Part shown: piece by piece, positions 1 through 55,205 of the stretch | Layout: each line of letters begins with the position of its first letter | How positions within the stretch are numbered: the stretch's first letter is position 1 | From: Candidatus Nomurabacteria bacterium | GTDB taxonomy: Bacteria > Patescibacteriota > Minisyncoccia > Phycocordibacterales > UBA918 | Assembly (NCBI GenBank): GCA_020632095.1 | Contig: JACKGF010000001.1 | Span: 866,713 to 930,712 of the forward strand | Reading direction: 5' to 3' | DNA: 64,000 nt | Program-made: the position numbers and the translations under genes | The notes under the pieces: model-generated | The model's input: the letters and a program-made list of their open reading frames with translations, nothing else | Told to the model about the DNA's origin: nothing | Databases searched by the model: none

Positions 1-711
1 GTGAATATTTCTACTATTGAAGACCCGATTGAATACCAAATGGCGCGGGTTAATCAGTCACAGGTAAAACCAGAAATTGGCTTTACTTTTGCGGCTGGCT
101 TGCGTTCACTAATGCGTCAGGATCCAGATGTGATTATGGTAGGTGAGATTCGAGATGAAGAAACAGCTAGTCTGGCTATTAATGCGGCCTTGACTGGTCA
201 CTTAGTGCTGGCCACTATTCACACTAACTCAGCGGCCGGCACGATTGCACGATTGGTCGATATGGGAGCTGAGACTTTTCTCCTTGTGTCTACCTTACGA
301 GTAGCGGTAGGTCAGCGGTTGGTACGTAAGCTCTGTGCTGATAAATTACCTTATATTCTTACTAAGGCTGAGCGCGATGAATTGGGTGAAAAGGTCGATA
401 TGGACCATGTACTCGGTGTGTTGAGAGAGGAAGGAATCGTGAAGAAAGATGCTACTTGGAATGATATTTCTTTTTATCATCCTAAAGAAAGAGGTGAATC
501 AGAAGATGGCTATAAGGGCCGAATGGGTATTCATGAGGTGTTGGAAATATCGCACACCTTGAAGGATATGGTGATGGCTGGAAAGACTGGAGATGAGATT
601 GAGGCTCAGGCTCGAAAAGAAGGAATGCTTACTATGTTGGAGGACGGAATATTTAAAGCGGCGCAAGGTATGACCAGTGTTGAAGAAGTATTACGAGTAA
701 TTAGCGAATAA
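1..711 (+). CDS. pilB: Type IV pilus assembly ATPase, PilB/GspE family, C-terminal part (5' end cut by window edge)
   Basis: Translation shows the GspE/PilB C-terminal region (…[10 protein letters not shown]…, [24 protein letters not shown]) and lies immediately upstream of pilC. Confidence 0.8.
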
Positions 712-715
712 AACT

Positions 716-1945
716 ATGCCAACATTTACCTACACTGGAGAAGATAGTGAAGGGAACACTGTGAAGAACTCGGTTACTACCGAAGATAGGTTTGGTGTAT
801 ATGCTGAGGCTCGCAAGCTTGGTCATACTGTAAGTAAGATTAAGGGTGGGTCTGGTTTCAGTTTGAGCGAAAAGTTTGACATGGAGAAGATTAACTACAT
901 GCTCAGTCGAGTTAAGAGTGATGAGTTGGTGATGGTGACTAGAAACCTTGGCTCCATGCTTACAGCTGGTTTAACCGTATCACGAGCCCTGTCGGTGATT
1001 GAGCGTCAGAGTGCAAATCCGCGTTTGAAAGGAGTTATTAAGAGGGTGATTGAGCGTATCAATCAAGGTGATTCTTTCTACGAAAGTCTTAAAGAATTTC
1101 CAGAAGTTTTTAATGATTTGTATGTCGCGATGATTAAAGCGGGTGAGGAAAGTGGTAACTTGGCTGAATCACTCAGAACACTAGCGGTGCAGATGGAGCG
1201 TTCTAGTAATTTGATAAAAAAAATCAAGGGCGCCATGATTTACCCGACAATCGTGGTGACAGTGATGTTTATCATCGGTGTATTGATGATGATTTATGTA
1301 ATTCCAGCTATAACTGATGTATTTAAAGGTATGGACAAGGAGCTGCCAGCAACGACACAGCTCCTCATAAACACTAGTGATTTTTTGGTCAATCACACCA
1401 TACTAGCTGTCGGTGGAATGATTGGAATAGTGGTAGGTTTTATTTATTTACTACGTACAAAGTGGGGTAAAATTGCTACTTCTTGGATTGTGGTTCGGTT
1501 GCCAGTGATCGGTACTTTAGCCAAGGAAACAAACTCAGCTCGAACTGCTAGAACACTTTCTTCCTTATTAAACTCGGGAGTAGATGTAATTCAGTCAATT
1601 GATATTACTGAGGAGGTGATTCAAAATGTATTTTATAAAGAAATCTTGCGTGAGGCGTCAAGGCGGGTAGAGAAAGGAACAGCTCTATCTGAGACCTTTA
1701 TTGAGAGAAAAGATTTATATCCAATACTGGTTGGTGAAATGATCATGGTTGGTGAAGAGACTGGGCAAATTGCTGGTATGTTGGGAGAGCTGGCGATATT
1801 TTATGAAACAGAAGTGGAGAGAAAAACCAAAGACTTGTCTTCCATCATCGAACCATTGCTGATGGTGGCGATTGGTGCTGGGGTTGGATTTTTCGCTCTA
1901 GCCCTAATAGCACCAATTTACTCTCTCTCAGACAGTATAAAATAA
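716..1945 (+). CDS. pilC: Type IV pilus inner-membrane platform protein PilC (GspF family)
   Basis: 409 aa with a duplicated GspF-like domain and 3 TM segments; spacing to pilB is 4 bp. Confidence 0.85.
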   Translation: MPTFTYTGEDSEGNTVKNSVTTEDRFGVYAEARKLGHTVSKIKGGSGFSLSEKFDMEKINYMLSRVKSDELVMVTRNLGSMLTAGLTVSRALSVIERQSANPRLKGVIKRVIERINQGDSFYESLKEFPEVFNDLYVAMIKAGEESGNLAESLRTLAVQMERSSNLIKKIKGAMIYPTIVVTVMFIIGVLMMIYVIPAITDVFKGMDKELPATTQLLINTSDFLVNHTILAVGGMIGIVVGFIYLLRTKWGKIATSWIVVRLPVIGTLAKETNSARTARTLSSLLNSGVDVIQSIDITEEVIQNVFYKEILREASRRVEKGTALSETFIERKDLYPILVGEMIMVGEETGQIAGMLGELAIFYETEVERKTKDLSSIIEPLLMVAIGAGVGFFALALIAPIYSLSDSIK

Positions 1946-1951
1946 TAGTTT

Positions 1952-3709
1952 ATGAAAAAAATAAACACCATTCAGTCTGGGTTCACTCTCGTCGAGGTGA
2001 TTATCGTTTCTGCAATTAGTGTGCTTATTTTTGTAGCTCTATTTGGTTCTTTCCATTATTCGCTACAACTGATTAATAATTATCGGGCAAAGCTATCAGC
2101 TCTTTCGGTCGCGAACGATAGGATGGAATATTTCCGGTCACTTCCTTATGACAGTGTGGGTGTCGTTGCTGGATATCCGGCAGGTACTGTTCCACAAAAT
2201 AGCACAACTTCTCTAAATGGTATTGATTTTAGTGAACGAGTACGAATTGACTATGTCGATGACCCTAGTGACGGTATTGGAGCAGCTGATACCAACGGTA
2301 TTATTTTGGATTATAAACGTGTTCGTTTAGAGTATGTTTGGGAAATATCAGGGGCAACCTCAAGTATTGCAATTGTTAGTAATATAGTACCGCGTTCAAT
2401 TGAATCGACATTAGGTGGGGGAACAGCTAGGATAAATGTGTTAGACGCGGACTCCTCTTTATTGGCTGGAGCGGCAGTGAGAATGTTTAGTTCTAGTAGT
2501 ACTTTTTCGTATGATGTTACAAATTACACGGATAGTTCTGGAGCAGCGCTATTCAATGTGCCGGCGGATAGCGGATATCAGGTTGAGGTAACAGCTAGTA
2601 TTGCTGGAAAACAATATTCAACAGCTAAAACTTATGTAGCAACAACTTCTAATCCTAATCCTACAGTAGCTCCTTTTGCTGTACTTGAGTCTGATATTTC
2701 AACTTTAACTTTCCAGATTGGTGAGCTGAGTGACTTAAAACTCAAAACCTATTCAAATTTAGTCTCTGGTTCATTGGTTGAGGAGTTTCTTGATATGGCC
2801 GGCGTTGCTAGTTCTACCGAAGTAGAAAGCGATACAAACAATCTTGTTTTAACTAATACTCTTGGTGTTTATGATACAGCTGGGATTGCTTATCTGAACA
2901 ATGTTACTCCAGTAACTATTTTTGGCTGGGAAACAGTCAGGGTGGCGGTTGATTTGCCTACGAACACTTCACATAAAGTACAATTTTTCACTGGTGTAGA
3001 TGGTGGACCTTATACTTTGATTCCGGATAGTGCCTTGTCAGGTAACACAACAGGATTTACTGCGACAATTATTGATATTAGTGAATTGGACGAAGTTTCT
3101 TATCCTTCAATTGTGGTTGGGGTAACATTAAGCACTGCCGATACAAGTGTGACTCCATCACTTGATGAGATTGGTGTTTATTACCGAGAAAGCGCTACAG
3201 TTATGGCCAGTGCAGGTTTGGACATTCAAGGTAATAAGATTATTGGTACAGATGCCAGTACACAACCCATATATAAATATGCAAATTCAGTTACGACTGA
3301 TGGTTCTGGTGAAGTTGTTCTGACTGACATGGAGTTTGATACCTATACAATTACTCCGGTTGGATCTTATGATATAGCTTCAGCTTGTACTTCTCATCCA
3401 ATAATTCATAAAGCCGGAATTGATACTGAATCCGAAATACTACTTTTAGCTAATGCGGTTAATACTTTGAGAGTCGAGGTGGTTAATTCTATAGGTCAAA
3501 CAATTCCAGGGATTGATGTAAATTTAACTCGTTCAGGGTACAACACATCACAAGAAACAGATGTCTGTGGTCAAAGTTTTTTTACAGGAGGATTGAGTGA
3601 TGATTCAGATTATGTTTTAACAGTGTCCGGAGTTGGCTATATAACTCAGATAGTTAATCCGTTCACTGTTAGTGGAGATACTGTCATGCAGATAATTTTG
3701 GCAGAGTAA
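1952..3709 (+). CDS. Large type IV pilin-like protein (prepilin-type N-terminal cleavage/methylation motif)
   Basis: N-terminus …QSG|FTLVEVIIV… followed by a hydrophobic helix matches the class III signal (G|FxxxE); 585 aa with a Thr/Ser-rich C-terminal region. Confidence 0.65.
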   Translation: MKKINTIQSGFTLVEVIIVSAISVLIFVALFGSFHYSLQLINNYRAKLSALSVANDRMEYFRSLPYDSVGVVAGYPAGTVPQNSTTSLNGIDFSERVRIDYVDDPSDGIGAADTNGIILDYKRVRLEYVWEISGATSSIAIVSNIVPRSIESTLGGGTARINVLDADSSLLAGAAVRMFSSSSTFSYDVTNYTDSSGAALFNVPADSGYQVEVTASIAGKQYSTAKTYVATTSNPNPTVAPFAVLESDISTLTFQIGELSDLKLKTYSNLVSGSLVEEFLDMAGVASSTEVESDTNNLVLTNTLGVYDTAGIAYLNNVTPVTIFGWETVRVAVDLPTNTSHKVQFFTGVDGGPYTLIPDSALSGNTTGFTATIIDISELDEVSYPSIVVGVTLSTADTSVTPSLDEIGVYYRESATVMASAGLDIQGNKIIGTDASTQPIYKYANSVTTDGSGEVVLTDMEFDTYTITPVGSYDIASACTSHPIIHKAGIDTESEILLLANAVNTLRVEVVNSIGQTIPGIDVNLTRSGYNTSQETDVCGQSFFTGGLSDDSDYVLTVSGVGYITQIVNPFTVSGDTVMQIILAE

Positions 3710-3714
3710 TAAAT

Positions 3715-4332
3715 ATGAATTTACATTTTCACAATTCCAAACAATTAGGAATGACATTGGTTGAGATGGTGGTTGTGATTGGTATTTACACTATTTTATC
3801 TTTAGCTATCACTACTAGTATTACTAATCTTTATAAAAACAATTCATATGCTATTGAGCAGTCCGAGGAGGTGGATAATGCAAGAAAAGGAATAACACAA
3901 TGGAATCGAGACGTTAAGGAAATGACTACCGCTGAAGACGGCACTTTCCCGCTAGTTGTTATTGATGAGAACCATTTAGGCTACTTTAGTGATACTGATC
4001 AAGATGCAAATGTAGAGTATGTAGAATATATTCTTTCCACTACGACCTTAAAAAAGTTTACATATAATCCAACTGGTTCACCTGCGGTATATAATTTTAG
4101 TTCTCCTGACTCTGAAGAAATACTTTCTGAGTACGTAAGAAATATTAGTCAATCAGTACCTACCTTTACGTATTTTGATAACTCTGGAAATCAATTGAAT
4201 TCCGCTTCGCCCATTTTGGATGTGCGTTATATTAAGGCTCAAATTATTGTTAATATCGATCCAGTAAGGTCACCGGGGGAGTTTATGCTCATGTCTAGTG
4301 TTGCACCACGTAACTTAAAGGATAATCTATAG
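3715..4332 (+). CDS. Minor pilin-like protein with prepilin N-terminus
   Basis: …KQLG|MTLVEMVVVIGI… is a prepilin cleavage/methylation motif; the gene sits in an operon with pilB/pilC. Confidence 0.6.
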   Translation: MNLHFHNSKQLGMTLVEMVVVIGIYTILSLAITTSITNLYKNNSYAIEQSEEVDNARKGITQWNRDVKEMTTAEDGTFPLVVIDENHLGYFSDTDQDANVEYVEYILSTTTLKKFTYNPTGSPAVYNFSSPDSEEILSEYVRNISQSVPTFTYFDNSGNQLNSASPILDVRYIKAQIIVNIDPVRSPGEFMLMSSVAPRNLKDNL

Positions 4333-4337
4333 TAAAT

Positions 4338-5768
4338 ATGAATAATTTATATTCTAGAAAAAAGAATCATTCGTCAGGGTATTTGCTCGTGTTAGTTCTG
4401 GTGATGGGTAGTGTATTTTTAATTATAATAAGTAACTTCATTGGATTCGTGGTGACGCAAAATCAATTAGTTAACTTCAGGTTTGAGCAGCAACGAGCAA
4501 CTGAAATTGCAGAAGCCGGATTAAATTACTATAAGTGGCATTTAGCTCATTACCCAGGTGATATTCAAGATGGTACAGGTTTACCTGGACCATATGTTCA
4601 TCAGTACACTGATCCAGAAGACGGAGTAATTGGTGAATTTTCTTTAGATATTGACAGCTCAACTTATTGTGGAGACATATCTTCGATTGATGTTAAGTCG
4701 ACAGCATTTACATACGCAGAACCAGATGCGGTAAGTAGTGTTGGTGCTAAGTATACTAGGCCGACGGTGGCGGATTATTCGTTTATAACAAACGGTAGTA
4801 CTTGGTATGGTTCGGATAGAGTAATTTATGGCCCATTACACTCAAATCAAGGGATTCGGATGGATGGAGAAAACAACTCTTCGGTTGGAAGTGGGCAGGC
4901 AAGTTGGACGTGTGATAGTTCTTTTGGATGTAGCCCAACTAAGACGGTTGATGGGGTCTATACTACTGGTTCGAATGCTACCCCTGGCCTATTCTCATTT
5001 CCTGTTTCCCCGATTGATTTTGCTGGATTGACTCTAGATTTGAGCGATATGAAAAATAGAGCTCAGAATAATGGAGGAATTTATTATGGTCCAACTACTG
5101 GTTATGGGTATAGAGTTATTTTTAACAGTAATGGCACCGTAAGTATTTATAGAGTAAATAACACTTACAATTACATTTCGTACAGTACGTATGAAGGTGA
5201 TCATTGGGGTGAGAGGAATGTGATCACTAGCCAGACTTTGTTAGCGACCAGAACCATTGATTCTAGTTGCCCCTTGTTGTTTTTTGAAGACAAAGTTTGG
5301 ATCGAGGGTGACATTAATCAAAAGGTTACAATAGCGGCAGCTGATTTAAATTCAAGTGCTCAGACAAATATTGTTATAGAAGGAGATGTGGACTATGTGT
5401 CAGGAACAAATGCAGGTTTACTAGCAATTGCAGAAGATGATATTGATATAGGGTTGACGGTACCTGATTATATGACTGTGAACGGAATTTACATTGCACA
5501 AAACGGTCGATTTGGTAGAAATCATTACAGTACTGGTCATTTAAGTTCATCTTATGATCAATATGTTAAACGAGAGTTACTTACCCGTACTGGCACAGTA
5601 GTGTCAAATGGAAGAGTAGGTACCAAATGGACTAGTTCGGGTAATTTTATTTCTGGTTTTAATAATCGTGTTACTTCCTTTGACTTAAACCAGGTTAATA
5701 GTCCACCACCGCTAACACCTCAAACTTCTGACGTTTATACCTTTAAGGATTGGCGGCAAGGGGGATAG
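4338..5768 (+). CDS. PilX-like pilus-associated protein (N-terminal TM helix, non-canonical prepilin motif)
   Basis: 476 aa with an N-terminal hydrophobic helix but no E at +5; last gene of the pilus operon before a terminator. Confidence 0.45.
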   Translation: MNNLYSRKKNHSSGYLLVLVLVMGSVFLIIISNFIGFVVTQNQLVNFRFEQQRATEIAEAGLNYYKWHLAHYPGDIQDGTGLPGPYVHQYTDPEDGVIGEFSLDIDSSTYCGDISSIDVKSTAFTYAEPDAVSSVGAKYTRPTVADYSFITNGSTWYGSDRVIYGPLHSNQGIRMDGENNSSVGSGQASWTCDSSFGCSPTKTVDGVYTTGSNATPGLFSFPVSPIDFAGLTLDLSDMKNRAQNNGGIYYGPTTGYGYRVIFNSNGTVSIYRVNNTYNYISYSTYEGDHWGERNVITSQTLLATRTIDSSCPLLFFEDKVWIEGDINQKVTIAAADLNSSAQTNIVIEGDVDYVSGTNAGLLAIAEDDIDIGLTVPDYMTVNGIYIAQNGRFGRNHYSTGHLSSSYDQYVKRELLTRTGTVVSNGRVGTKWTSSGNFISGFNNRVTSFDLNQVNSPPPLTPQTSDVYTFKDWRQGG

Positions 5769-5775
5769 GTTAAAA

Positions 5776-5806
5776 GGTGGCGAGCGATAGCTCGCCACCT
5801 TTTTTA
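5776..5806 (+). terminator. Rho-independent terminator of the pilus operon
   Basis: GGTGGCGAGC-gata-GCTCGCCACC hairpin followed by TTTTTT. Confidence 0.6.
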
Positions 5807-5836
5807 ATTAATATACTATAGGCACATTCACTTACC

Positions 5837-6613
5837 GTGATACAATTTTCTCATATGAAAAAAAATGTACCGTTGATTATTGGCAATTGGAAACTGAATC
5901 CGGTGACATTGTCAGAAGCAGCTTCGCTAGCTAGCGGAGTAGTTACTAAGTTAAAAAAAGAAACAGAAGCATTGGTTGTAGTTGCTCCCTCTTTCATTCA
6001 CCTACAAGAAGTGAAGAAGAAAATCAGCAAAAGCTTGATTGAGTTAGCAGCGCAAGACGTGTATTCCAAAAATATTGGTGCCCATACTGGCGAGGTGTCA
6101 ATTTTGCAACTGAAGGATCTGGGAGTATCAATGGTGATTGTTGGTCACTCCGAAAGACGAGCAATGGGTGAAACAAACAAAGAAGTTTGTCAGAAGGTGG
6201 TGACAATTTTAGCTCAAAAAATAACTCCAGTGGTTTGCGTTGGAGAGAGTGAGCGAGACGACCAAGGGAATTTCTTTACTTTTGTTGAGGAGCAGTTACG
6301 TAGTTTGTCTGAAGTGTTGGACACTACACAGATTAAAAAAGTGGTAATTGCTTACGAACCAATCTGGGCAATTGGAACCGGCAATACTGCGACTAACGAA
6401 GACGTTAAGGAAATGCAGCTTTTTATTGAAACGGTTTTGACAAAACTTTATGACAGAAATACTGCTAAGAAGGTCAAATTGATTTATGGTGGTTCGGTGA
6501 AAGCACACAATGCTGCTGAGCTTTACAAAGAAGGAGGAATGAGTGGATTTTTGGTGGGTGGTGCGAGTTTGAAAGCGGAAGAATTTTCGGAGATTGTAAA
6601 AGCTTGTAAGTAA
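5837..6613 (+). CDS. tpiA: Triose-phosphate isomerase
   Basis: TIM motifs IVGHSERR and AYEPIWAIGTG in a 258-aa protein. Confidence 0.9.
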   Translation: MIQFSHMKKNVPLIIGNWKLNPVTLSEAASLASGVVTKLKKETEALVVVAPSFIHLQEVKKKISKSLIELAAQDVYSKNIGAHTGEVSILQLKDLGVSMVIVGHSERRAMGETNKEVCQKVVTILAQKITPVVCVGESERDDQGNFFTFVEEQLRSLSEVLDTTQIKKVVIAYEPIWAIGTGNTATNEDVKEMQLFIETVLTKLYDRNTAKKVKLIYGGSVKAHNAAELYKEGGMSGFLVGGASLKAEEFSEIVKACK

Positions 6614-6619
6614 ATTGTT

Positions 6620-7723
6620 ATGAAAAAAATTACTGAAGTGGATGATTTGAAGGGTAAATATGTGTTGGTGAGGGCTTCTCTCAATATTCCACTTGATGAC
6701 GGAGAAGTAAGGAATTTGTTTCGACTCAACAGAGCTTTGCCGACACTTAGATATTTGCACGAACAAGGAGCAAAAGTAATTATCCTAAGTCATATCGGTC
6801 GTAAACCAGAAGAAACTCTCAAGCCAGTGTTTAATGAATTAGAGAAATATTTGCCCGTACATTGGGGAGGAGTTATTTGGGAGTCTGAATTTTGGGAACG
6901 GAGAAATTTGATGTCAAACGGAGATATTTTACTAGCTGAAAATTTACGACAGGACAAGCGCGAAGAAAATAATGACGAGTCACTCGTGAAGGAACTGGCC
7001 GAAATAGGAGAAATTTATGTCAATGACGCTTTTGCTGAAGCGCATCGTGAGCACGCTTCGACTTATGGATTAGCACAAAAACTTCCCGCTTACGCTGGAT
7101 TAACTCTGATTGAGGAAGTTAATGAATTATCCAAGGCCATGCAACCTACTTCGCCGTCACTGTTTCTGCTTGGGGGGGCTAAGTTTGAAACCAAGATGCC
7201 TTTGGTCGAAAAGTATCTAGAATTATATGATCGGGTATTTATTGGCGGCGCTTTGGCACATGATATTTTAAAAGCCCGCGGTCTTGAGGTGGGTCAATCA
7301 CTAGTGTCTGATATTTCTCTAGGGGAAGCCTCGTTTCTTCATAGTGAAAAACTTTTGTTACCGATTGATGTAATGGTGGAAGGAGTAAATGGAAAACAAA
7401 TAAAATCGGTCGATGAGGTTTTGCCAGACGAAAAGATCTTTGACTGTGGTCCGGCCACAGTGGCTATGTTGGCAGAATATATTCATGAAGCTAAGACTAT
7501 ACTATGGAATGGACCATTTGGCGTCTATGAATTTGGTTATAAAACGAGTACTGAAGCGACAGCTAAAAATATTGCTGAGTCTAAAGCATATTCTGTGGTA
7601 GGAGGAGGAGATACGGTGGCAGCTATTGAGAAATTGGGTATTAATGACAAGTTTGGGTTTTTGTCAGTGGGTGGCGGGGCGATGTTAGATTTTTTGGAAA
7701 AAAGGATCAACCTCGGTGATTGA
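6620..7723 (+). CDS. pgk: Phosphoglycerate kinase
   Basis: PGK N-terminal substrate-binding region and the C-terminal GGGA…LDxLE type ending; 6 bp after tpiA. Confidence 0.9.
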   Translation: MKKITEVDDLKGKYVLVRASLNIPLDDGEVRNLFRLNRALPTLRYLHEQGAKVIILSHIGRKPEETLKPVFNELEKYLPVHWGGVIWESEFWERRNLMSNGDILLAENLRQDKREENNDESLVKELAEIGEIYVNDAFAEAHREHASTYGLAQKLPAYAGLTLIEEVNELSKAMQPTSPSLFLLGGAKFETKMPLVEKYLELYDRVFIGGALAHDILKARGLEVGQSLVSDISLGEASFLHSEKLLLPIDVMVEGVNGKQIKSVDEVLPDEKIFDCGPATVAMLAEYIHEAKTILWNGPFGVYEFGYKTSTEATAKNIAESKAYSVVGGGDTVAAIEKLGINDKFGFLSVGGGAMLDFLEKRINLGD

Positions 7724-7734
7724 TTTGTTGGAGT

Positions 7735-7776
7735 AAAAAAACCGGCCCCTAGGCCCCTATGGGGCCGGCCGGTTTT
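7735..7776. terminator. Bidirectional palindromic terminator (pgk / HIT convergent pair)
   Basis: A-run, then CCGGCCCCTAGG…GGGGCCGGCCGG palindrome, then T-run. Confidence 0.55.
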
Positions 7777-7797
7777 CTAGTGTCTAGTCTAGAAAAA

Positions 7798-8211
7798 CTA
7801 TTTATTCAAACTCTCAATCAATTTGTCTTTAACAATTGGCACCTCATTAGGATTAAATTCACAATGCACAGCATGTTTAAAACTGCCGTCATTAGGAAAG
7901 CGCGGTATCACGTGCAGGTGAGTATGAAATACTTCCTGACCAGCGTCTGATCCATTGTTCATAATATAATTTACTCCTGTACAACCAAGGGTTGATTTCT
8001 GAGCTAGGGCAATTTTCTGAGCAATTTTAATCATATGGGCTAGTGTGTCGGGATTAGTTTCAGTGCCATCGATACTGGGTTCTTTTGGTATAACCAGGGT
8101 ATGACCAAGATTGATGGGTTTTATATCGAGAAAAACTAGCACGATATCATCTTCATAAATAATGTCGGCTGGAATTTCTCGGGCAATAATTTTAGAAAAA
8201 ATAGTAGTCAT
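7798..8211 (-). CDS. HIT family (histidine triad) nucleotide hydrolase
   Basis: HxHxHxx motif (FHTHLHVIPRF) in a 137-aa protein. Confidence 0.8.
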   Translation of the reverse strand: MTTIFSKIIAREIPADIIYEDDIVLVFLDIKPINLGHTLVIPKEPSIDGTETNPDTLAHMIKIAQKIALAQKSTLGCTGVNYIMNNGSDAGQEVFHTHLHVIPRFPNDGSFKHAVHCEFNPNEVPIVKDKLIESLNK

Positions 8212-8243
8212 ACGCTCTAAATGGTACCATACGAAATATCTCT

Positions 8244-9935
8244 ATGAAAACTTATCAGTTTCCCAACTCAAATAAAAACTATTCAGATACTGAACCAACC
8301 GCATCTCCTTTGTTAAATCAGTTGTTGTCGGCACGGGGTATTACTAAAATTAAAGAAGCAGAAGATTTTCTTAATCCAGACTACGAAACCCAACTCCACT
8401 TACCGGAATTGTTGAATGATATGGAGAAAGCGCGTAAGCGCATTGAGTCAGCGATGGAAGCCGGTGAAAAAATTGCGATTTTTAGTGACTACGATTGTGA
8501 CGGAATTCCCGGTGCTGTCGTGCTTCATGACTTTTTCAAAGCAGTGAAGTACAATTCTTTCCAAAACTACATCCCGCATCGTCACTATGAAGGTTTTGGG
8601 TTGAGTAACAAGGCGATTGATACATTGCAGGCTGATGGAGTCACTTTGATTATTACCATTGACTGTGGCACTTCAAATGTCGCTGCAGTGGCTTACGCTA
8701 AGGAACAAGGGATTGATGTGATTGTGACCGACCATCATGAACCAGAGGTTGTGTTGCCGGAAGCAGTGGCGGTAGTTAATCCCAAATTGGGTGGATACCC
8801 TTTTGCGGATTTGTGCGGTACCGGAGTCGTGTTTAAGTTGGTTCAGTCACTTTTAAATAACAAAGATTACGGAGTGAAGAAAGGTTTTGAAAAGTGGTGG
8901 TTGGACATGGTTGCGATAGCAACCGTGGCCGACATGGTGCCATTGCAAGGTGAGAATCGAGTATTGGCGTACTACGGTCTGCAGGTGTTACGTAAATCAC
9001 GTCGCCCCGGGCTACAGCAACTACTCAAAAAAGCGAAAGCCGATCAGCGCTATCTAACTGAAGATGATATTGGTTTTACCATTGGTCCACGCATTAACGC
9101 TGCTTCCCGCATGGATACACCAGAAGACGCATTTCATATGTTGTCTGAAACAGATTTAGTAAAAGCGAGCGAGCGAGTTGAACATCTCGAAAGGTTAAAC
9201 ACCGACCGCAAAAGTATGGTTGCATTAATGACCAAAGATTTACATAAACGAATGAAAACTCTGGAAGAGATTCCGGCCGTGGTAGTAATGGGAAATCCGG
9301 AATGGCGACCTTCGTTGGTTGGTTTAGCTGCCAACAAACTAGCTGAAGAATTAGGTCGGCCGGTTTTCTTGTGGGGGACTGACGGTAATGGCGTTTATAA
9401 AGGTTCTTGTCGCTCTGGCGGAGGGATTAGTGTGGTGAAGCTGATGCAGGCGACAGCCGAGGTTTTTCTGGAGTATGGAGGTCATCACGTGGCCGGTGGT
9501 TTTTCTGTTAAAGACAAGGACATCTTTACTTTTGGTACAGTTTTGACAAAAGCGGCTGAGGAATTGGGGGAGGAGGCTTTGATCAAAGAAGATATTGTGA
9601 TTGATGCTGAGATTCAACTGGCGGATATCAATCCTTTGTTAATTGAACAGCTCAACAAACTTTCACCTTTTGGTACGGGTAATCACAAACCGTTATTTGC
9701 TTTTATGGAAGTGACTCCAGAATCAGTGGAATTGTTTGGTAAGACAAAAGAGCATACCAAGCTAATGTTTCAAACTGAACAGGGTAAAATAGAAGCGATT
9801 GCATTTTTTCAAACTCCGGAACAATTCACTAAGTTGCCAGTGGCGGGAGAAACTTGCACGATGATTGGTCATGTTGAGCAGTCATACTTTATGAATCGAA
9901 TGCAGACGAGGGTGAGAATAGTGGATGTACTTTAG
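8244..9935 (+). CDS. recJ: Single-stranded-DNA-specific exonuclease RecJ
   Basis: DHH family motifs (DYDCDGI, VIVTDHHEP) and the DHHA1 region; 563 aa. Confidence 0.85.
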   Translation: MKTYQFPNSNKNYSDTEPTASPLLNQLLSARGITKIKEAEDFLNPDYETQLHLPELLNDMEKARKRIESAMEAGEKIAIFSDYDCDGIPGAVVLHDFFKAVKYNSFQNYIPHRHYEGFGLSNKAIDTLQADGVTLIITIDCGTSNVAAVAYAKEQGIDVIVTDHHEPEVVLPEAVAVVNPKLGGYPFADLCGTGVVFKLVQSLLNNKDYGVKKGFEKWWLDMVAIATVADMVPLQGENRVLAYYGLQVLRKSRRPGLQQLLKKAKADQRYLTEDDIGFTIGPRINAASRMDTPEDAFHMLSETDLVKASERVEHLERLNTDRKSMVALMTKDLHKRMKTLEEIPAVVVMGNPEWRPSLVGLAANKLAEELGRPVFLWGTDGNGVYKGSCRSGGGISVVKLMQATAEVFLEYGGHHVAGGFSVKDKDIFTFGTVLTKAAEELGEEALIKEDIVIDAEIQLADINPLLIEQLNKLSPFGTGNHKPLFAFMEVTPESVELFGKTKEHTKLMFQTEQGKIEAIAFFQTPEQFTKLPVAGETCTMIGHVEQSYFMNRMQTRVRIVDVL

Positions 9936-10012
9936 TAATAATTTATAGCTCAAAAATTTGAATCAATTGTCAATTGTTACAGCAGAGCGTTTTTGTGTTA
10001 GGCTGACTGTAT

Positions 10013-10429
10013 ATGGGGAAAATTACTGTTTATACTAAAGGAGTTTCGCAAGGTGATCCAGGACCAGCTACGATTGGGGCCTACATAGTGGATGAAAAGA
10101 ATAATGTTGTTAAAGAGGTGTCTGAAAATATAGGTAACGCTACCGACAATTTTGCTGAATACATGGCGGTTTTGCGTGGTTTGCAGACGGTGGTGGATTT
10201 ATACAAAGAAAAGGCTAAAGACATAGAGTTTGAGTTCAAGTTAAGTAGTGAGTTTGTAAAGAAACAGCTGGTAGGGGATTCGCCAATAATAGATCCTGGA
10301 CTCGTGCCGTATTTTATTGAGATTCATAATATGCAGATAACTAATGCGTTGACTGTGACTTATACTCTTGTATCAAAAAAGAAAAATATAGAAGCAAATA
10401 GGCTAGTGAAGGAGGCAGTGAACATTTAA
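10013..10429 (+). CDS. RNase H-like (RVT_3-type) domain protein
   Basis: The NxAEYxAL motif (DNFAEYMAVLRGL) and overall RNase HI-like layout are present; canonical acidic residues appear substituted (my by-eye alignment). Confidence 0.45.
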   Translation: MGKITVYTKGVSQGDPGPATIGAYIVDEKNNVVKEVSENIGNATDNFAEYMAVLRGLQTVVDLYKEKAKDIEFEFKLSSEFVKKQLVGDSPIIDPGLVPYFIEIHNMQITNALTVTYTLVSKKKNIEANRLVKEAVNI

Positions 10430-10578
10430 TTTCATTGACTGAAAATTTTTCGGTGGTACACTCAAAACCGGAACTCACAAATGGTGAGTGTAGTCGGTAC
10501 TAAAATGGAATACTTCGCATTTTCTTTAAGCGAAGTGTTGGTTAAGTAGTTGTATTCAATCTTGAAGGGAAAAAAGTA

Positions 10579-10767
10579 ATGAACAACACTAGTTTACAGA
10601 AAAGCCAGGTCTTTGATCCAAGGTGGGTCAAGGGCCAAGAAGCACCTATTTTGTGTCAGGTTGCCCGAGAGTCGGGAGGGGGGACAAGAATGCCAACACT
10701 AGGAGAAGTCCTAGGCAAGATCGTTTATGATCCAACGTGGGCTCCCGAGGACCCACCTACCGGCTAG
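10579..10767 (+). CDS. Hypothetical small Pro/Gly/Trp-rich protein (or part of a GC-rich ncRNA locus)
   Basis: A GAAGGG RBS lies ~9 nt upstream of the ATG; the locus is GC-richer than its flanks and is followed by a perfect 12-bp palindrome at 10789-10814. Confidence 0.25.
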   Translation: MNNTSLQKSQVFDPRWVKGQEAPILCQVARESGGGTRMPTLGEVLGKIVYDPTWAPEDPPTG

Positions 10768-10954
10768 ATGAAACTTGCATAATGAAAACCGGCCAGACTC
10801 TCGAGTCTGGCCGGTAGATCGTTTTAATATCAGTTAACTTTGTGAATTAAGGCAGAGCGATTGACAGTTTTTGTTGTAATGATACTGTTTTTAATGGCGT
10901 CAAAACGTGGCTCGCTTGTAAAGGGGCTTTTGTAATGTTCATTTAGGAATAAAA

Positions 10955-11188
10955 ATGTCAGATTTTGAATGTTTGAATAAAATTGGGCAGTCAGCTCTTG
11001 ATGCTGGGATGTTGACCCCAGAAGAATTGCTGAAAAAAACGCGTAATCTCAACCGTGATATCGCCAAACTCAACAAATCGCCAGCCACAAGTTGGGTTGT
11101 GCTCGCCGGATTGAAGAAGTTGCGACTTCGTCTCGAGACAATTTACTACATGCGCCCTTTCCGGCAGGAGGGCATGGTCGAGGGCTAA
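10955..11188 (+). CDS. Hypothetical protein (77 aa)
   Basis: An AGGAAT RBS precedes the ATG, and the terminator GCAAAAGGGCGCATGTGTGCGCCCTTTT follows. Confidence 0.3.
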   Translation: MSDFECLNKIGQSALDAGMLTPEELLKKTRNLNRDIAKLNKSPATSWVVLAGLKKLRLRLETIYYMRPFRQEGMVEG

Positions 11189-11354
11189 GTCAGTCTGCTC
11201 ATTTCAGTAGGCAAAAGGGCGCATGTGTGCGCCCTTTTAATATTTAATTGGTACACTATGTTATGCAGTTAGTGTTTTTTATTTCTAGTGTAGTGGCGTT
11301 TGTGGTGGGGGTGGGTTTGCGGACGGTGATACCGATTTCCCTTACGGTTATAGT

Positions 11355-12845
11355 GTGGCTGATGGTGGTAAGTTTGGGTTTGGGGGGGTGTGGCGCAGCG
11401 GAGCTGCTTCGGCGCCAGGTCTACTGCTGGTCAGTCTCTGCTTCACATTTATTGCATTGGGGATTTTACGTACTGAAATAGCGACTTGGAAGTTTGATGA
11501 TTCACCTTTATCTGCTCAACTCGAACAAAAAGTTGAGCTTCAAGGAAAAGTTATTCAAGAGCCAGATTACCGAGAAAAGTCTGTTCATTTATACGTTGAA
11601 ACAGCCAACGATGTGGTGTTGGTGACTGCTGACAGACTATCAAATGTTAATTATGGAGATATAATTTCGGTAGCTGGAAAACTAACCAAGCCCGAGGAAT
11701 TCACTACAGAACTAGGCCGAACTTTTAATTACCCAGGATATTTAATGGCACGAGGTGTGCAGTATAAAATTTCCTTTGCGACGGTAGCGGTGTTGGAAAC
11801 AAGGCAAGGTAATCCGATAGTGGCAGCATTGCTTGATGTAAAAAGACTATTTATTACTTCGCTTGAACAAGTTATTTTTGAACCACAAGTTGGTCTGGGT
11901 GAAGGTTTGTTACTAGGGGTTAAGTCTTCACTCGGCGAGGATATCGAGGAAAATTTTAGACGGACTGGCATTATTCATATTGTTGTTTTGTCTGGCTACA
12001 ACGTGATGTTGGTAGTGGCATTTTTTATGTTGCTATTTTCTTTCTTTTTGCCACTTCGAGTGCGTATAATCGCCGGTATTATTTCGATAGCGGCTTTTGC
12101 GTTGATTGTTGGCCTGTCGGCGACAGTTGTACGAGCGAGTATTATGGTTTCGCTAGTGCTGATAGCTCAAGCTAGTGGACGTCGCTACGATGTTTTGCGC
12201 GGATTACTTTTTGCGGGTATGGTGATGATTTTTGTTAATCCATTTTTACTTCTGTATGACATTGGTTTCCAGTTATCGTTTATGGCCACTCTCGGTCTAT
12301 TGCTGATTGTTCCACAGTTTGAGGTTTCGCTAGTTAAAACTAGTAATCTTTGGGGGATACGAGATTTTTTCTTAGCGACAGTAGCGACTCAGATAGCAGT
12401 GTTGCCACTCTTGATGTTTCATATTGGGCAGGTGTCGTTAATTTCGGTAGTGGTTAATGTGTTGGTGTTGCCACTTGTCCCGGTCGCTATGTTGCTAACA
12501 TTTATCAGTGGTTTGGTCGGATTTTTCTCCGGTCAGTTAGCTGGGTTAATTGGTTACTTGGCTTCCATTTCACTCAACTATATCTTAATGGTAGCTGATT
12601 GGTTCGCCCACGTTCCTTTAGCGGCTGTAACTGTACCGCAGTTTTCTGCTCTCGGAGTATTGGTAATGTATGGATTGATGGCGGTTGGGTTGGTGATATG
12701 GCGGAACAAAAAAATTACCGCTGTGAGTTTGAGTGCAAGGTCTCTTAATCTGAGTGATTGGGTGATTGAGGAGGAGGTTGAAAAAGCTGGCCAGTCCCAA
12801 AAGCACCGCCCAACAAACCCCGAACCACCAATATTTTTCCGTTAA
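11355..12845 (+). CDS. comEC: ComEC/Rec2-family DNA-uptake channel protein (DUF4131 + competence domain, no MBL domain); N-terminal TM region encoded in another frame (11248-11481), so frameshifted or phase-variable
   Basis: Polytopic membrane protein with ComEC-like topology. The upstream frame encodes 2 TM helices and runs into a G7 tract at 11383-11389, where the frames switch. Confidence 0.7.
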   Translation: MADGGKFGFGGVWRSGAASAPGLLLVSLCFTFIALGILRTEIATWKFDDSPLSAQLEQKVELQGKVIQEPDYREKSVHLYVETANDVVLVTADRLSNVNYGDIISVAGKLTKPEEFTTELGRTFNYPGYLMARGVQYKISFATVAVLETRQGNPIVAALLDVKRLFITSLEQVIFEPQVGLGEGLLLGVKSSLGEDIEENFRRTGIIHIVVLSGYNVMLVVAFFMLLFSFFLPLRVRIIAGIISIAAFALIVGLSATVVRASIMVSLVLIAQASGRRYDVLRGLLFAGMVMIFVNPFLLLYDIGFQLSFMATLGLLLIVPQFEVSLVKTSNLWGIRDFFLATVATQIAVLPLLMFHIGQVSLISVVVNVLVLPLVPVAMLLTFISGLVGFFSGQLAGLIGYLASISLNYILMVADWFAHVPLAAVTVPQFSALGVLVMYGLMAVGLVIWRNKKITAVSLSARSLNLSDWVIEEEVEKAGQSQKHRPTNPEPPIFFR

Positions 12846-13036
12846 AGGTAATTCGGTATTAATCTATTAAGAAAAGGTGTTGGTGGTAGTAAAACAAAGG
12901 ACATGTTTCCAGTCCCAGAGTCGTACAGAGCCTTGTGTATTCAAGGAGGGGATTCAAGGGCCCTTGACAAGTATTAATAAATATGATAAGACAACAAACA
13001 CGTAGCTCTTTTATTTAATGTTGCTAGGAGGCAAGT

Positions 13037-13297
13037 ATGGACATGTTCAGTGTTGGAGTCGGCTTCGTTGCGGGAGGTGTTATCGTTCTCATTCTCTCGT
13101 GGGTGTTCTACAAGGGGTCCGAAGAATCCTTTCGTGGCCTGTCCAAGCATCATGCTGGTTTCGGAAATGAGGCAGCGAATGATATCATTTCCGGCTTCAT
13201 CTCCGCCATCGTGGCGCCCATCCTGAAATGGGTTGGAGGGGTAGTGTTAGTTATTGGCCTCGTCATCATGGCTACCTCGTGGGTCGTCGGTTCGTAG
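13037..13297 (+). CDS. Small membrane protein (2 TM), hypothetical
   Basis: A strong AGGAGG RBS precedes the start, the sequence shows two hydrophobic helices, and a terminator follows. Confidence 0.45.
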   Translation: MDMFSVGVGFVAGGVIVLILSWVFYKGSEESFRGLSKHHAGFGNEAANDIISGFISAIVAPILKWVGGVVLVIGLVIMATSWVVGS

Positions 13298-13320
13298 ATA
13301 AAAAATCTGGCGCATGTCAG

Positions 13321-13362
13321 AAAAAGAGCCGTTTGTTTACACAGACGGCTCTTATTTTTTAT
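13321..13362. terminator. Bidirectional terminator (small membrane gene / sodA)
   Basis: AAAAAGAGCCGTTTGT-ttacac-AGACGGCTCTT followed by TTTTTT. Confidence 0.6.
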
Positions 13363-13398
13363 ACCAAGGAAAGGCCTAGGCGAAACTTGACGCTGATA

Positions 13399-13977
13399 CT
13401 AAACCATCCGTTCAGATACTACTTCCCAGTTTGTGCCGGCGATAAAGGCGTCGATATACTTGGATTTATCACTGGCTGGGTAATCGCGCATGTATGAGTG
13501 CTCCCACATGTCTAGCGCATAAATAATATCCAAGTCGGCTAGTTGGCCGATATGTTGTTCGTCTAGCCAAGTTTGCACCAGTTGGTCGGTGTGTGGGTCG
13601 TGGTACAGCATCGCCCAGCCAACCCCGCGAGTCATGGCGATTTGCTTAAAGCGTTCTAGCCAAGCTTCGTAGGTTCCCCACTGTTGTTCAATTTTATTTT
13701 TTAAGGCCCCGTCAGACAGTGGTTTGGCACCACCTTCTAGTTGAGAAAAATAGTATTCATGATTGCGCATGCCACCAAACTCAAAACCGAGTCGACGTTG
13801 CATTTCGGTAATCGGGTAGGCGTTGTTCGCATAATCTTCACTAAAAGCCGCGATTTTCTCTTGAATTAAATTTACGTGCTTAACATAACCTTGGTAAAGC
13901 CAAATGTGTCCGTTGATTGAGTCAGTTGAAATCCCAGGCACTTCAGGAATATCAAAATTTAAGGGTTCGTATTTCAT
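13399..13977 (-). CDS. sodA: Fe/Mn superoxide dismutase
   Basis: The DMWEHSYM motif (D-x-W-E-H) and N-terminal His ligands are present. The start is placed at MKYEPLNF rather than the longer upstream ORF. Confidence 0.85.
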   Translation of the reverse strand: MKYEPLNFDIPEVPGISTDSINGHIWLYQGYVKHVNLIQEKIAAFSEDYANNAYPITEMQRRLGFEFGGMRNHEYYFSQLEGGAKPLSDGALKNKIEQQWGTYEAWLERFKQIAMTRGVGWAMLYHDPHTDQLVQTWLDEQHIGQLADLDIIYALDMWEHSYMRDYPASDKSKYIDAFIAGTNWEVVSERMV

Positions 13978-14035
13978 AGTAATTAGTACAGTTTGCAGCG
14001 GATAATATTTCACTAGCATTGTATCATGTAGGTAT

Positions 14036-14896
14036 ATGGAGCGTTGGTTAAGAATTCGTCTGGGGGTATTGGTGGCCTTGAGTGTGGTTGGGTTGTTGGT
14101 CTGGATTCCGGCTGGACAAGCCAGCTCCTCCATTGGTGAAAATTTACAGGTAAGGTTTCTAGACGTCGGCCAAGGCGACGCGATTCAAATTATTACTCCA
14201 GATGGATATGAGGCTTTGATAGACGGTGGGCCGACGGCTTCGGTGTTGCGAGAGTTGGCAATTGGGCGTTCATTCTTTGATAAGTCAATTGACGTCTTGA
14301 TTGCGACTCACCCGGATTCAGACCATATCAGTGGTTTGGTAGATGTGTTAGAGCGATATCAAGTTGATTACATTATTGAGACCAATAATAAAAGCGAAAC
14401 AGCGGCTTCTAGTGCTTATGAACAAGCGGTTACAAACGAACAGGCAAAAATAATCATTGCCCAGGCTGGACAAACAATTAAGCTTGGAGGATTAACTACT
14501 ATTAAGATTTATTCACCCAATGGTGATACCAGTAACTGGAAGAGTAATGCTGCATCGGTAGTAGTGCAGGTGTCTTTTGGAGATATTGATTTTATGTTAA
14601 CCGGTGATGCTCCTAGTTCAATTGAGGATTACATTGTGTCTAAGTACGGTACTTTGCTTGAGAGTGAGGTATTAAAATTAGGTCATCATGGTTCGGATAC
14701 CTCTTCCAGTGAAAATTTTTTGAATACTGTTAAACCAGATTTTGCGGTGGTATCAGCTGGAGCTGACAATCGTTATGGTCATCCTCGAGCGGAGGTGATT
14801 GAACGAGCAGAAAGTGTGGGAGCAGAGATCGTCAGTACGATTGATAAAGGAACGATTACTTTTGTGACTGATGGAAAGAAGGTGTGGGTAGAGTAG
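14036..14896 (+). CDS. Secreted MBL-fold metallo-hydrolase, ComEC C-terminal-domain type (stand-alone)
   Basis: Signal peptide/TM at the N-terminus, then motifs FLDVGQGDA, ATHPDSDHISG and LGHHGSDTSSS typical of the ComEC-type lactamase domain. Confidence 0.7.
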   Translation: MERWLRIRLGVLVALSVVGLLVWIPAGQASSSIGENLQVRFLDVGQGDAIQIITPDGYEALIDGGPTASVLRELAIGRSFFDKSIDVLIATHPDSDHISGLVDVLERYQVDYIIETNNKSETAASSAYEQAVTNEQAKIIIAQAGQTIKLGGLTTIKIYSPNGDTSNWKSNAASVVVQVSFGDIDFMLTGDAPSSIEDYIVSKYGTLLESEVLKLGHHGSDTSSSENFLNTVKPDFAVVSAGADNRYGHPRAEVIERAESVGAEIVSTIDKGTITFVTDGKKVWVE

Positions 14897-43435: not shown

Positions 43436-45526
43436 TTACATATCCGCTCGCCAGCGCTTTAACATTCGAGATAGTATTAATGAGACAATAAATATGACAA
43501 TTGATAGAGCTAAGAACTTCGGATCAAAGGCGTTGAAAGACAGTCCATTCATCTGAAATTCGTCTAAGTCAACGGCAGCTCCGAGGGCTACAAAAGTGGT
43601 TAGTCCAGGCATGATACCGATGAGGGTAGCAAAGAAGTATTCTTTCCAGTCGGCTTTTACAACACCAGCACCATAGTTGGTAAGGTCAAAAGGAACATAG
43701 AATAAACGCATTAATAAAACTGTTTCAAAAGAATTTTTACGCAAAGCCTCAATCCAGTTACCAATTATGGTATCCTCCAACTTTAAGTCTTTGCCAAAGA
43801 AGCGACCAATCCAATAGGCGAAGTTGGCGGAAGCATTTTCTCCCAAAATGGTATAGAGGATACCCCACCAAAATCCAAACAACGCACCAGAGAGAGCGGT
43901 GAGTAAGGTGGCTGGGAAAAGAATGAGTGGCCTGATAGCGTACAGCGTCATATACACTAACGGTCCCCACATGGTAGAGGTAAAGAAATGGAGTAGTTGA
44001 AACAGAACGTCTTGGTAGGAGTAAGAATGACTAATACGATAATGTTGGAAGGTATAAATTAATGTAATCCAAAATACAGCGGCTAGGAATTTTGGGGTAC
44101 TTCTTTTTATCAAACTAATTACATCGCTTTCTAAACTGCTTAGTTGACGACTAACAAACTGGTCGGCAGCTTTTTTAACAATTAGAGAGTAGGTAGGGTA
44201 GGCGTAAATAATATTTTGTAATTTCCAGAGAGTGATTCTTTGCTCGATAGCTAGGGTGAAGATTGAAATTAATTCACCGGCCGCTGGCCCTATAATATGT
44301 GCTCCTAAAATAGTGCCATTAAGGCGTCGGGCGATGACAATTAAAATTCCGTCGGTAGTTTCATCAGTCTTGGCTCTGTCGTTTTCTGAGAATGGAACTT
44401 CGATACGCATCAATTCATCCTCTTTATATTTTTTGATTGATTCACTCCAGGACAATCCAACTTGGGCTACTTCTGGATAAGTATAGGTAACTTTTGGAAC
44501 AGATTTACGTTTGTCGACCCGGAAGAGACCGTAGCTAGCAACTCGCTTCACCACTTGTCTGGCAATATCGTCAGCGGTGTGAGTAAATTTTAATTTTTGG
44601 GCTACGTCACCAATAGCATAAACATACTTATTTGAAGTACGGTGTTGGCTGTCGACCATGATGCAGTGATTATCAAATTTTATTCCAGCACTTTCTAAAC
44701 CTTGGGGAATATTGGGAACTCTGCCGATGGCGATTAGAACTTTATCGAAAGGAACTTTCATTTCTCCTGTGATAATTTCATCTACTCTATGATCAAAGAT
44801 AGCGACGTTGTTTTTTACTCGGTTTATAAATGCCTGTAGATGAATTGTGATACCGAGCTTGTCAAAGTGCTTTTTTAAAAGGGGTCTAATTGCTGCGTCT
44901 TCTAGTTGAGCGAATTCTTTATCAATGGTCGCAATGGTAACCTCGCTACCTAACATAGCTAAGGCCTGTCCCAGTTCGAGTCCAATTGGTCCGGCGCCGA
45001 TGATGAGAGTTTTAGGGGGAATGGTTTTGAGATTAAAAATGTTTTGGTTGGTTAGGGTGTCGGTTTCGTTAAGTCCAGGAACATTAATCATGCGGGGGCT
45101 AGAGCCAGTCGCTATGATAGCGGTTTTATAGTCGAAAACTGTGTCGCCAATTTTTATTGAACACTTGGTATTAAAAACTGCCTCACCCATTACTACATCG
45201 ATACCAAGTTTTGAAAATGTTTCTGGTGTTTCATCGGCAAGGATTTTGTTAATGGTGTCACGGACATAGGTCATGGCACCGGCGCGAAAAGCTTCGCTTT
45301 TCGCGCCGTCTCCTACTGCTTTAGTTGCTAGATAATATTCTTTGGCTTTATGTAGTAGAGCTTTGCTAGGAATACAACCAGTATTGGTACATTCGCCACC
45401 CATATGCTCATGTTCCACCAGTAAGACTCGTTTACCAACTTTAGAAAACCCGACCGCCGCTGTCAGTCCACCTGAACCAGCTCCAATTACAACGACGTCA
45501 TAGTTATTATTCATACCTTCGACCAA
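43436..45526 (-). CDS. Class I pyridine nucleotide-disulfide oxidoreductase (FAD, CxxxxC) fused to a C-terminal DedA/TVP38-family membrane domain
   Basis: N-terminal GAGSGG FAD motif and redox-active CTNTGC; the last ~230 aa carry 5-6 TM helices resembling a DedA domain. Confidence 0.7.
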   Translation of the reverse strand: MVEGMNNNYDVVVIGAGSGGLTAAVGFSKVGKRVLLVEHEHMGGECTNTGCIPSKALLHKAKEYYLATKAVGDGAKSEAFRAGAMTYVRDTINKILADETPETFSKLGIDVVMGEAVFNTKCSIKIGDTVFDYKTAIIATGSSPRMINVPGLNETDTLTNQNIFNLKTIPPKTLIIGAGPIGLELGQALAMLGSEVTIATIDKEFAQLEDAAIRPLLKKHFDKLGITIHLQAFINRVKNNVAIFDHRVDEIITGEMKVPFDKVLIAIGRVPNIPQGLESAGIKFDNHCIMVDSQHRTSNKYVYAIGDVAQKLKFTHTADDIARQVVKRVASYGLFRVDKRKSVPKVTYTYPEVAQVGLSWSESIKKYKEDELMRIEVPFSENDRAKTDETTDGILIVIARRLNGTILGAHIIGPAAGELISIFTLAIEQRITLWKLQNIIYAYPTYSLIVKKAADQFVSRQLSSLESDVISLIKRSTPKFLAAVFWITLIYTFQHYRISHSYSYQDVLFQLLHFFTSTMWGPLVYMTLYAIRPLILFPATLLTALSGALFGFWWGILYTILGENASANFAYWIGRFFGKDLKLEDTIIGNWIEALRKNSFETVLLMRLFYVPFDLTNYGAGVVKADWKEYFFATLIGIMPGLTTFVALGAAVDLDEFQMNGLSFNAFDPKFLALSIVIFIVSLILSRMLKRWRADM

Positions 45527-55059: not shown

Positions 55060-55083
55060 ATCTAACAAGTGCATTAAAGCAAC

Positions 55084-55116: not shown

Positions 55117-55205
55117 TGTATAAGATACAGGATACTTTCTTAGAAGGGGTGCTTTTAAAATTTGATATAGTGATACAATAGACCCAATTATTAATATCAA
55201 GTTTT

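Follow-up and report, generated by a model that had tools for sequence, protein, structure and literature searches.

The comEC frame break in a Candidatus Nomurabacteria genome is probably an assembly error at a palindrome within a conserved two-gene ComEC system

The gene for the DNA-uptake channel ComEC is interrupted by a change of reading frame in the 64,000-nt stretch of a Candidatus Nomurabacteria genome analyzed here, which is referred to as the window. As judged from a comparison of sequences, this frame break is probably a local assembly or consensus error at a stable palindrome and not a phase switch, and the true coding sequence would consist of 529 aa starting from the ATG at 11263. 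The organism is most likely a Candidatus Nomurabacteria-type member of the Paceibacteria (Patescibacteria/candidate phyla radiation, CPR) with an intact two-gene ComEC system, in which the channel and the metallo-β-lactamase (MBL) domain are encoded by separate genes. The split of ComEC is real, conserved and clade-wide in Paceibacteria, and it is partly already known. A superoxide dismutase gene (sod) that is conserved in antisense orientation between the two halves, and a palindrome that is conserved in position inside comEC, are new; a literature search found no paper describing the two-gene arrangement or the nested sod. Taken at face value, the window would contain the first case of a phase-variable channel for DNA uptake among CPR bacteria; most likely it does not.

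In the window as assembled, the first 42 residues of ComEC lie in another frame than the rest of the protein. The initial annotation had assigned the first two transmembrane (TM) helices to an open reading frame (ORF) in frame +2 at 11248-11481. This ORF exists, but its homology to ComEC is limited to 11263-11388 and the remainder is out-of-frame read-through. The true 5′ end of comEC, encoding TM1-TM2, is therefore given as 11263..11388 on the + strand; its start, ATG 11263, is equivalent to the ATG called as gene start in an independent contig of the same strain (L007), and the N-terminus could be aligned with 19 homologues. The run of seven G residues (G7) at the break is also present, although at 11382-11388 (+ strand) and thus one base before the reported 11383-11389. 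The main ORF is located at 11355-12845 as described, and its frame is one base behind that of the upstream ORF. The two would indeed be fused by a 1-nt change, as insertion of one G after the run resulted in a continuous 527-aa protein when the translation was checked. In this repaired protein, the match to DUF4131 comprises residues 25-172, spanning the junction, and the Competence domain comprises residues 216-481. The Competence transmembrane domain (PF03772) was matched with an E-value of 3.2e-55 (residues 216-481), and TIGR00360 and TIGR00361 also match the ComEC of the window. According to the profile matches, the rest of comEC (11389..12845, + strand) encodes the OB fold (DUF4131) and the Competence channel domain and no MBL domain. 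In the public annotation the gene product is a 496-aa protein (MCB9814606.1) that starts at GTG 11355, and this allele is on record from one contig only, with a length of 997,259 nt.

For comparison, contigs of the same strain were gathered via exact-protein look-ups from at least eight other public samples or assemblies. They cover positions 9-48236 and 54888-58470 of the window (∼52 kb). The datasets include ERZ27248697 (ENA; contig L007), ERZ27309364, ERZ28655857, GCA_020428725.1 (contig L002), SRR8206192, SRR14234111, and SRR12358675 and SRR12358676 (contigs L013 and L014, respectively). Over the shared ∼52 kb, only five single-base differences and five gaps separate the window from the same-strain contigs, some of which pass at least nine other palindromes without discrepancy. 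All five gaps are differences between the window and L007 and are located at two places, 7698-7751 and 11386-11394. Between L007 and positions 9-13994 of the window no substitutions were found, and every gap lies at one of two GC-rich perfect palindromes.

At 11386-11394, the window lacks one T and the six bases CCGAAG relative to L007. The T interrupts the G run (G5-T-G2, GGGGGTGG) and is carried by three assemblies (L007, L013, and L014). The run is therefore not a homopolymer there. The six extra bases just downstream of the G run are present in two contigs, L007 and L002, in the latter at the contig start, and the other contigs concur with L007 as far as each of them reaches. L007 is the one independent contig that spans the whole site. 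There, comEC forms one ORF of 529 aa that has DUF4131 and Competence domains and in which, as in the repaired protein, the N-terminal TM helices and the OB fold are continuous with the channel domain. The junction peptide of L007 (LGVVWRRSSGAASAP) fits the family motif VWRR(K/N/S)S-x-A-x-SAP; two residues of this motif are absent when the window is repaired by one G. The G tract and the frame break, which had been taken as properties of the organism, are thus not found in the other assemblies that reach the site, and the gene in L007 is intact. A gapped DNA pattern scan of Joint Genome Institute (JGI) metagenome contigs found neither of the two comEC alleles.

The initial annotation proposed that comEC is a phase-variable contingency locus, in which a slipped-strand change of the G tract toggles DNA uptake. 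This proposal is very improbable. The G7 run is located in the coding region and G8 would restore the frame, and a coding G run in which a one-base change alters the frame is also what characterizes the contingency loci of Neisseria and Haemophilus. However, no pure-G length variants were seen: the other allele is G5TG2 plus CCGAAG, neither G6 nor G8, and all three other assemblies covering the run have G5TG2. The frame difference also includes the separate 6-nt indel. In contrast to the known contingency loci, no tract-length polymorphism was found here, the run is interrupted by a T elsewhere and it is not conserved in relatives, as the preceding residues are encoded by varied codons in the homologues. 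The other G7 of the window (7172-7178, in the phosphoglycerate kinase (PGK) gene) is identical between assemblies. A programmed -1 ribosomal frameshift on G_GGG_GGG, stimulated by a hairpin and resulting in full-length ComEC, is hardly credible. The required shift is -1, the heptamer formally corresponds to X_XXY_YYZ and a stem-loop follows within a few nucleotides, but the intact allele needs no frameshift and contains no slippery heptamer. Moreover, the hairpin of the window allele is weak (-17.9 kcal/mol, z 0.09) compared to that of the intact allele (-39.5 kcal/mol, z -6.4), heptamers of G only are poor slippery sites, and a two-frame gene was found in no homologue, all of them being single-frame.

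The location of the gaps points to a technical cause. In L007, the G run is followed by a perfect 15-bp palindrome, TGGCGCCGAAGCAGC-GGA-GCTGCTTCGGCGCCA (11383-11415 of L007), which encodes W-R-R-S-S-G-A-A-S-A-P. The window contains a damaged remnant of it at 11391..11417 (+ strand), of which the left arm lacks CCGAAG. Contigs of five assemblies start or stop at this palindrome. L013 and L014 stop at its left edge and tail into G runs; in two-colour Illumina chemistry, a lost signal leads to G runs at contig ends. L002 and L003 start inside the palindrome. It was considered that the start of L002 is a fold-back artefact, which was rejected since it matches the real left arm in L007. The frame difference thus consists of a 1-nt and a 6-nt gap, less than 10 nt apart, at the place where short-read assemblies break. 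The apex of the palindrome is GCGGAGC, a GCGNAGC mini-hairpin; such DNA mini-hairpins are extraordinarily stable and are a source of sequencing errors (PMC13037366). In the proposed mechanism, the palindrome, which is located 3 nt downstream of the G run, would disturb sequencing or assembly locally by means of this apex, and this one assembly would have lost the T within the G run and CCGAAG from the left arm, failing at exactly this point because the palindrome is there. If the frame break is such an artefact, the reads of the site would carry GGGGGTGG plus GGCGCCGAAGCAGC.

The second difference between the window and L007 (7698..7776) is located at the end of the PGK gene. Here, the window has an extra A at 7698, which shifts the last PGK codons, lacks a G at 7735/7736, and contains an extra CCTA in the left arm of a perfect 16-bp terminator palindrome that follows PGK. 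In L007 this palindrome is GC-rich and perfect (AAAACCGGCCGGCCCC-TAT-GGGGCCGGCCGGTTTT), and the short-read contigs L008, L009, and L010 start immediately after it. The PGK product has 367 aa in the window and 371 aa in L007 with different tails, and both C-termini match the Pfam profile to position 377/379. This discrepancy is probably the same kind of local assembly error as the one at comEC, and the last PGK codons are probably mis-annotated in the public genome.

The second site also bears on the possibility of a real lesion, in which the strain or population would have recently inactivated comEC by palindrome-associated deletions of the T and of CCGAAG, so that only a pseudogene or a protein truncated at the N-terminus (from GTG 11355) would remain. 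Perfect palindromes are known deletion hot spots, the window allele has been deposited and annotated as a 496-aa protein, and the site is fully spanned by one other contig alone. Nevertheless, a real lesion is considered unlikely. Between the window and the contigs with the intact allele, the remainder of comEC and the MBL gene show 100% identity, and therefore there is no sign of relaxed selection. The sole other indel cluster in ∼52 kb is the one described above, at a second palindrome that breaks short-read assemblies, where it damages the end of a housekeeping gene. With both indel clusters at read-breaking palindromes, a technical cause is favoured over two independent biological lesions.

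Several points weigh against an assembly error. We infer the error from other assemblies rather than from reads, and the whole site is spanned by only one independent contig. At most of the other perfect palindromes of the window, the assembly shows no discrepancy; a palindrome alone is therefore no guarantee of an error. Among consensus errors, deletions of 6 nt and insertions of 4 nt are not the most frequent types, and palindromes are also genuine deletion hot spots in vivo. The single 997-kb contig only suggests that long reads were used for the source assembly. With respect to the two-gene system, we likewise infer that both halves assemble into one machine and that the MBL protein has nuclease activity. 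A local error, which the initial annotation had mentioned as the alternative to phase variation, is still the best-supported reading, given the G5TG2 and CCGAAG of the other assemblies and the intact 529-aa gene of L007. The public genome thus probably mis-annotates comEC as an N-terminally truncated 496-aa protein, and very stable GC-rich palindromes appear as blind spots of short-read and finished assemblies of these genomes alike.

The palindrome within comEC was surveyed in 101 non-redundant comEC homologues that were anchored on the invariant W44 codon. A palindrome of 11-19 bp was present in 27 of these, with the same centre, the codon five after W44. The pairing is all-or-none: the 27 sequences have 11-15 of 15 possible Watson-Crick pairs, the other 74 have ∼4, which is the random level, and none has 9-10. 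Runs of at least 8 pairs were found in 24 sequences at this centre, compared to 0-2 at each of 11 other centres and to 1.4 (maximum 5) after shuffling of the right arms between sequences. When covariation was tested on the 27 palindrome-bearing sequences, which were themselves selected for pairing, both-side changes were observed at all 15 pairs (94 double-change cells vs. 22 in shuffles), with a covariation score of 0.662 compared to 0.165 for the shuffled sequences, a value that was reached by 0 of 500 shuffles. One-side-only differences (G-U type) were found in only 5 cells. The apex is frequently GCGAAGC across homologues. The loop comprises a single codon and both arms are in frame, and the encoded peptide is therefore mirrored, with K(AAA) opposite F(TTT), N(AAC) opposite V(GTT), S(AGC) opposite A(GCT) and R(CGA) opposite S(TCG). 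This is visible in the protein alignment, and the mirrored residues fall in the TM2-TM3 loop peptide. In 1.75 Mb of related loci, 81 perfect palindromes with a stem of at least 12 bp were found inside long ORFs, of which 21 are located at this site.

These patterns make it conceivable, as a tentative proposal, that the palindrome is a functional nucleic-acid element within the comEC reading frame. It could act as an intragenic attenuator, as a translation brake on the DNA-uptake channel or as a DNA-hairpin signal; the best guess is an RNA hairpin with one of the first two roles. G-T and A-C mismatches in the palindrome are equally rare (5 vs. 5, in few cells), and therefore constraint at the RNA level and at the DNA level are not separable. 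An intrinsic terminator at this position has weak support: a GC-rich stem is present and the 3′ flank is slightly enriched in T across homologues (5.2 vs. 4.0 T per 10 nt, p = 0.01), while the flank here is AGGTCTACTG, with no T enrichment in this genome. It is possible that the palindrome is maintained by template switching and has no function. An origin from a mobile element (REP/MITE-like) was rejected, since the site is constant whereas its sequence varies among species. The palindrome offers a testable candidate for a regulatory or structural element in organisms in which almost no regulation is understood.

The ComEC of the window was correctly described as lacking an MBL domain: the match to TIGR00361 comprises only 82-384 and is below the cut-off. 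Among the 120 homologues listed, none carries a C-terminal MBL domain (PF00753) on the same polypeptide, and each consists of ∼520 aa with DUF4131 and Competence domains only. The ComEC of the window is collinear with residues 10-490 of the solved full-length ComEC (PDB 30bt_A). Downstream, at 14036..14896 (+ strand), a stand-alone MBL protein of 286 aa is encoded, for which profile and PDB matches indicated a TM helix at the N-terminus and, after it, an MBL domain that contains the HxDxDH motif (H92-P-D94-S-D96-H97). It matches Lactamase_B (6e-12) and positions 432-663 of TIGR00361 (E 1.6e-36), and its best PDB matches are all ComEC, with 30bt_A aligned over residues 505-789 (E 8e-31). As the two products match residues 10-490 and 505-789, respectively, the two genes together tile the canonical ComEC and are separated in the loop that precedes its last TM helix. 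In the MBL protein, the metal ligands H92, D94, D96, H97, D191, H217, H218, and H249 are invariant in 22 homologues. The MBL domain of ComEC is a nuclease with the HxDxDH motif variant (PMC12455585).

The initial annotation had recognized the downstream gene as a stand-alone ComEC-type MBL protein, but regarded it as secreted by means of a signal peptide. This segment is a homologue of a ComEC TM helix, as the alignment with 30bt_A takes in the hydrophobic segment of the MBL protein (RWLRIRLGVLVALSVVGLLVWI vs. RWHRRELGLLAILTLATLLIFL). Arginines precede the hydrophobic stretch of ∼20 residues, and the sequence that follows it varies among the 22 homologues, with no conserved cleavage motif. Because of the homology to a TM helix, the preceding arginines and the lack of a conserved cleavage motif, a membrane anchor is likelier than secretion, and the protein is probably anchored in the membrane with its MBL domain outside the cell. 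In the proposed system, comEC would provide the N-terminal TM helices, the OB fold and the Competence channel domain, and the second gene would provide the remaining C-terminal part of canonical ComEC, i.e., the TM helix in front of the MBL domain and the MBL nuclease domain itself with all metal-binding residues. By extension from work on the fused domain, the MBL domain would degrade the non-imported DNA strand beside the channel in trans. Paceibacteria keep the nuclease domain of ComEC as a separate, probably membrane-anchored protein beside the channel gene, which bears on the processing of the non-imported strand in CPR bacteria, organisms that are thought to be DNA scavengers.

The split had been described as an arrangement of this locus, which is right in substance; it is, however, found throughout the clade and is not a peculiarity of the window. 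When species-representative genomes were searched through the MBL protein, the MBL ORF was stand-alone in 79 of 80, and a separate comEC was located upstream on the same strand in 53 of these 80. Conversely, in metagenome comEC loci found through the channel-domain motifs, the MBL gene was present downstream on the same strand in 60 of 80. In 17 of the 20 loci without it, the sequence extends for less than 2 kb downstream; 60 of 63 informative loci are therefore positive. Of 114 loci holding both comEC and the MBL gene, 91 have an antisense Fe/Mn superoxide dismutase gene between the two, and in 12 the two are adjacent. In the window the dismutase gene is located at 13399..13977 on the - strand (Pfam Sod_Fe_C and Sod_Fe_N), and the divergent starts of sod and the MBL gene are only 58 nt apart. 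In most loci that contain sod, its stop codon overlaps or abuts that of comEC (-4 to +8 nt). The window departs from the related loci only by an extra ORF of 86 aa between comEC and sod (13037..13297, + strand), which is hydrophobic, has no family match and is also called as a gene in L002, L003, and L007; in an excerpt of 40 entries, it was absent from the interval that separates comEC from the MBL gene in other species. It is concluded that comEC → ← sod → MBL is a deeply conserved three-gene arrangement. In the JGI annotation many such MBL genes are labelled as “competence protein ComEC”. If the proposals made here are true, the palindrome and the three-gene arrangement together form a regulated two-part DNA-uptake module of Paceibacteria that has hitherto not been described.

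In 31 of the 101 homologues, a second hot spot of palindromes was observed at 10-55 nt ahead of the stop codon of comEC, in all three reading frames (examples are L017, L104, L122, and L174). It is absent from the window, where the 86-aa ORF separates comEC and sod. This site accounts for 25 of the 81 perfect intra-ORF palindromes in the 1.75 Mb of related loci. Among 28 loci that carry it, 26 have overlapping or abutting stop codons of comEC and sod, and its upstream flank consists of K/E codons, which on the strand of sod would correspond to a tract rich in U. The palindrome at this second site is probably the terminator of sod, which is convergent with comEC, displaced into the comEC tail.

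Palindromes were also observed inside other genes. A perfect 13-bp palindrome, GGCGCGAAAAGC-GAA-GCTTTTCGCGCC, is present at 45280-45308 of the window, inside a gene on the - strand (43436-45514) for a pyridine-nucleotide-disulfide oxidoreductase/VTT-domain protein. It encodes GAKSEAFRA, of which the core KSEAF is the same as in many comEC palindromes, and it is identical in L183. Genes for RNase H-like proteins, relatives of the one at 10013-10429 in the window, contain perfect intragenic palindromes of 12-16 bp in several species (L044, L055, L072, and L084). Given these cases, intragenic palindromes with a conserved position may not be unique to comEC.

With respect to other genes of the window, the reported vicinity to type IV pilus genes was confirmed, with genes for PilB and PilC at the window start. 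Neither comEA nor dprA, for which no systematic search was made, was among the precomputed Pfam hits for the genes at 1-48 kb. The precomputed Pfam hits further indicated a compact cluster for nucleotide and NAD salvage at 22.8-34.9 kb, with genes for a PRPP synthetase, an NrtR-like regulator, NAD kinase, NUDIX proteins, NAPRTase, NAD synthase, an ADP-ribosylglycohydrolase and a nucleoside deoxyribosyltransferase. Unlike the products of the neighbouring genes, the product of 48162-49352 (396 aa) was not matched exactly by any entry of the protein-position index, which may reflect a different call of the start codon or another local discrepancy.

Compared with known systems, the comEC palindrome resembles GCGNAGC mini-hairpins and intrinsic terminators formed by perfect palindromes, with which it shares the apex GCGGAGC or GCGAAGC and a 3-nt loop. 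The intergenic terminators of these genomes have the same style of GC-rich perfect stem of 11-19 bp. Unlike terminators, the comEC palindrome is located ∼130 nt inside an ORF, in frame, where it encodes a conserved loop peptide, and in this genome it is not followed by a U-tract. The two ComEC proteins together correspond to the canonical three-domain ComEC/Rec2 (Bacillus subtilis, Moorella; PDB 30bt and 9vc6; TIGR00361), with which they share the OB fold, the Competence domain and the MBL nuclease domain with HxDxDH. Canonical ComEC/Rec2 is one polypeptide, whereas here it is divided, in the cytoplasmic loop ahead of the last TM helix, between two genes that are 1.2 kb apart with the antisense sod between them, and the two halves are therefore probably not co-transcribed. 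ComEC proteins of the “DC” type, i.e., without MBL, have been reported (Pimentel and Zhang, 2018, PMC6299819), as have the ComEC of Helicobacter pylori and that of CPR bacteria (Meheust, 2019, PMC6744442), so that the absence of an MBL fusion in CPR ComEC is already published. The channel protein described here is similar to them in having DUF4131 and Competence domains only. In their searchable parts, these reports do not mention a cognate TM-anchored MBL gene of the ComEC type beside comEC. A functional likeness is offered by EndA, a membrane-bound nuclease of Streptococcus pneumoniae that is a protein of its own and degrades the strand that is not transported (cited in PMC12455585). In both cases the transformation nuclease would come from a separate membrane-bound protein beside ComEC. 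EndA is, however, neither of the MBL fold nor derived from ComEC, whereas in Paceibacteria the separate protein is the MBL domain of ComEC itself.

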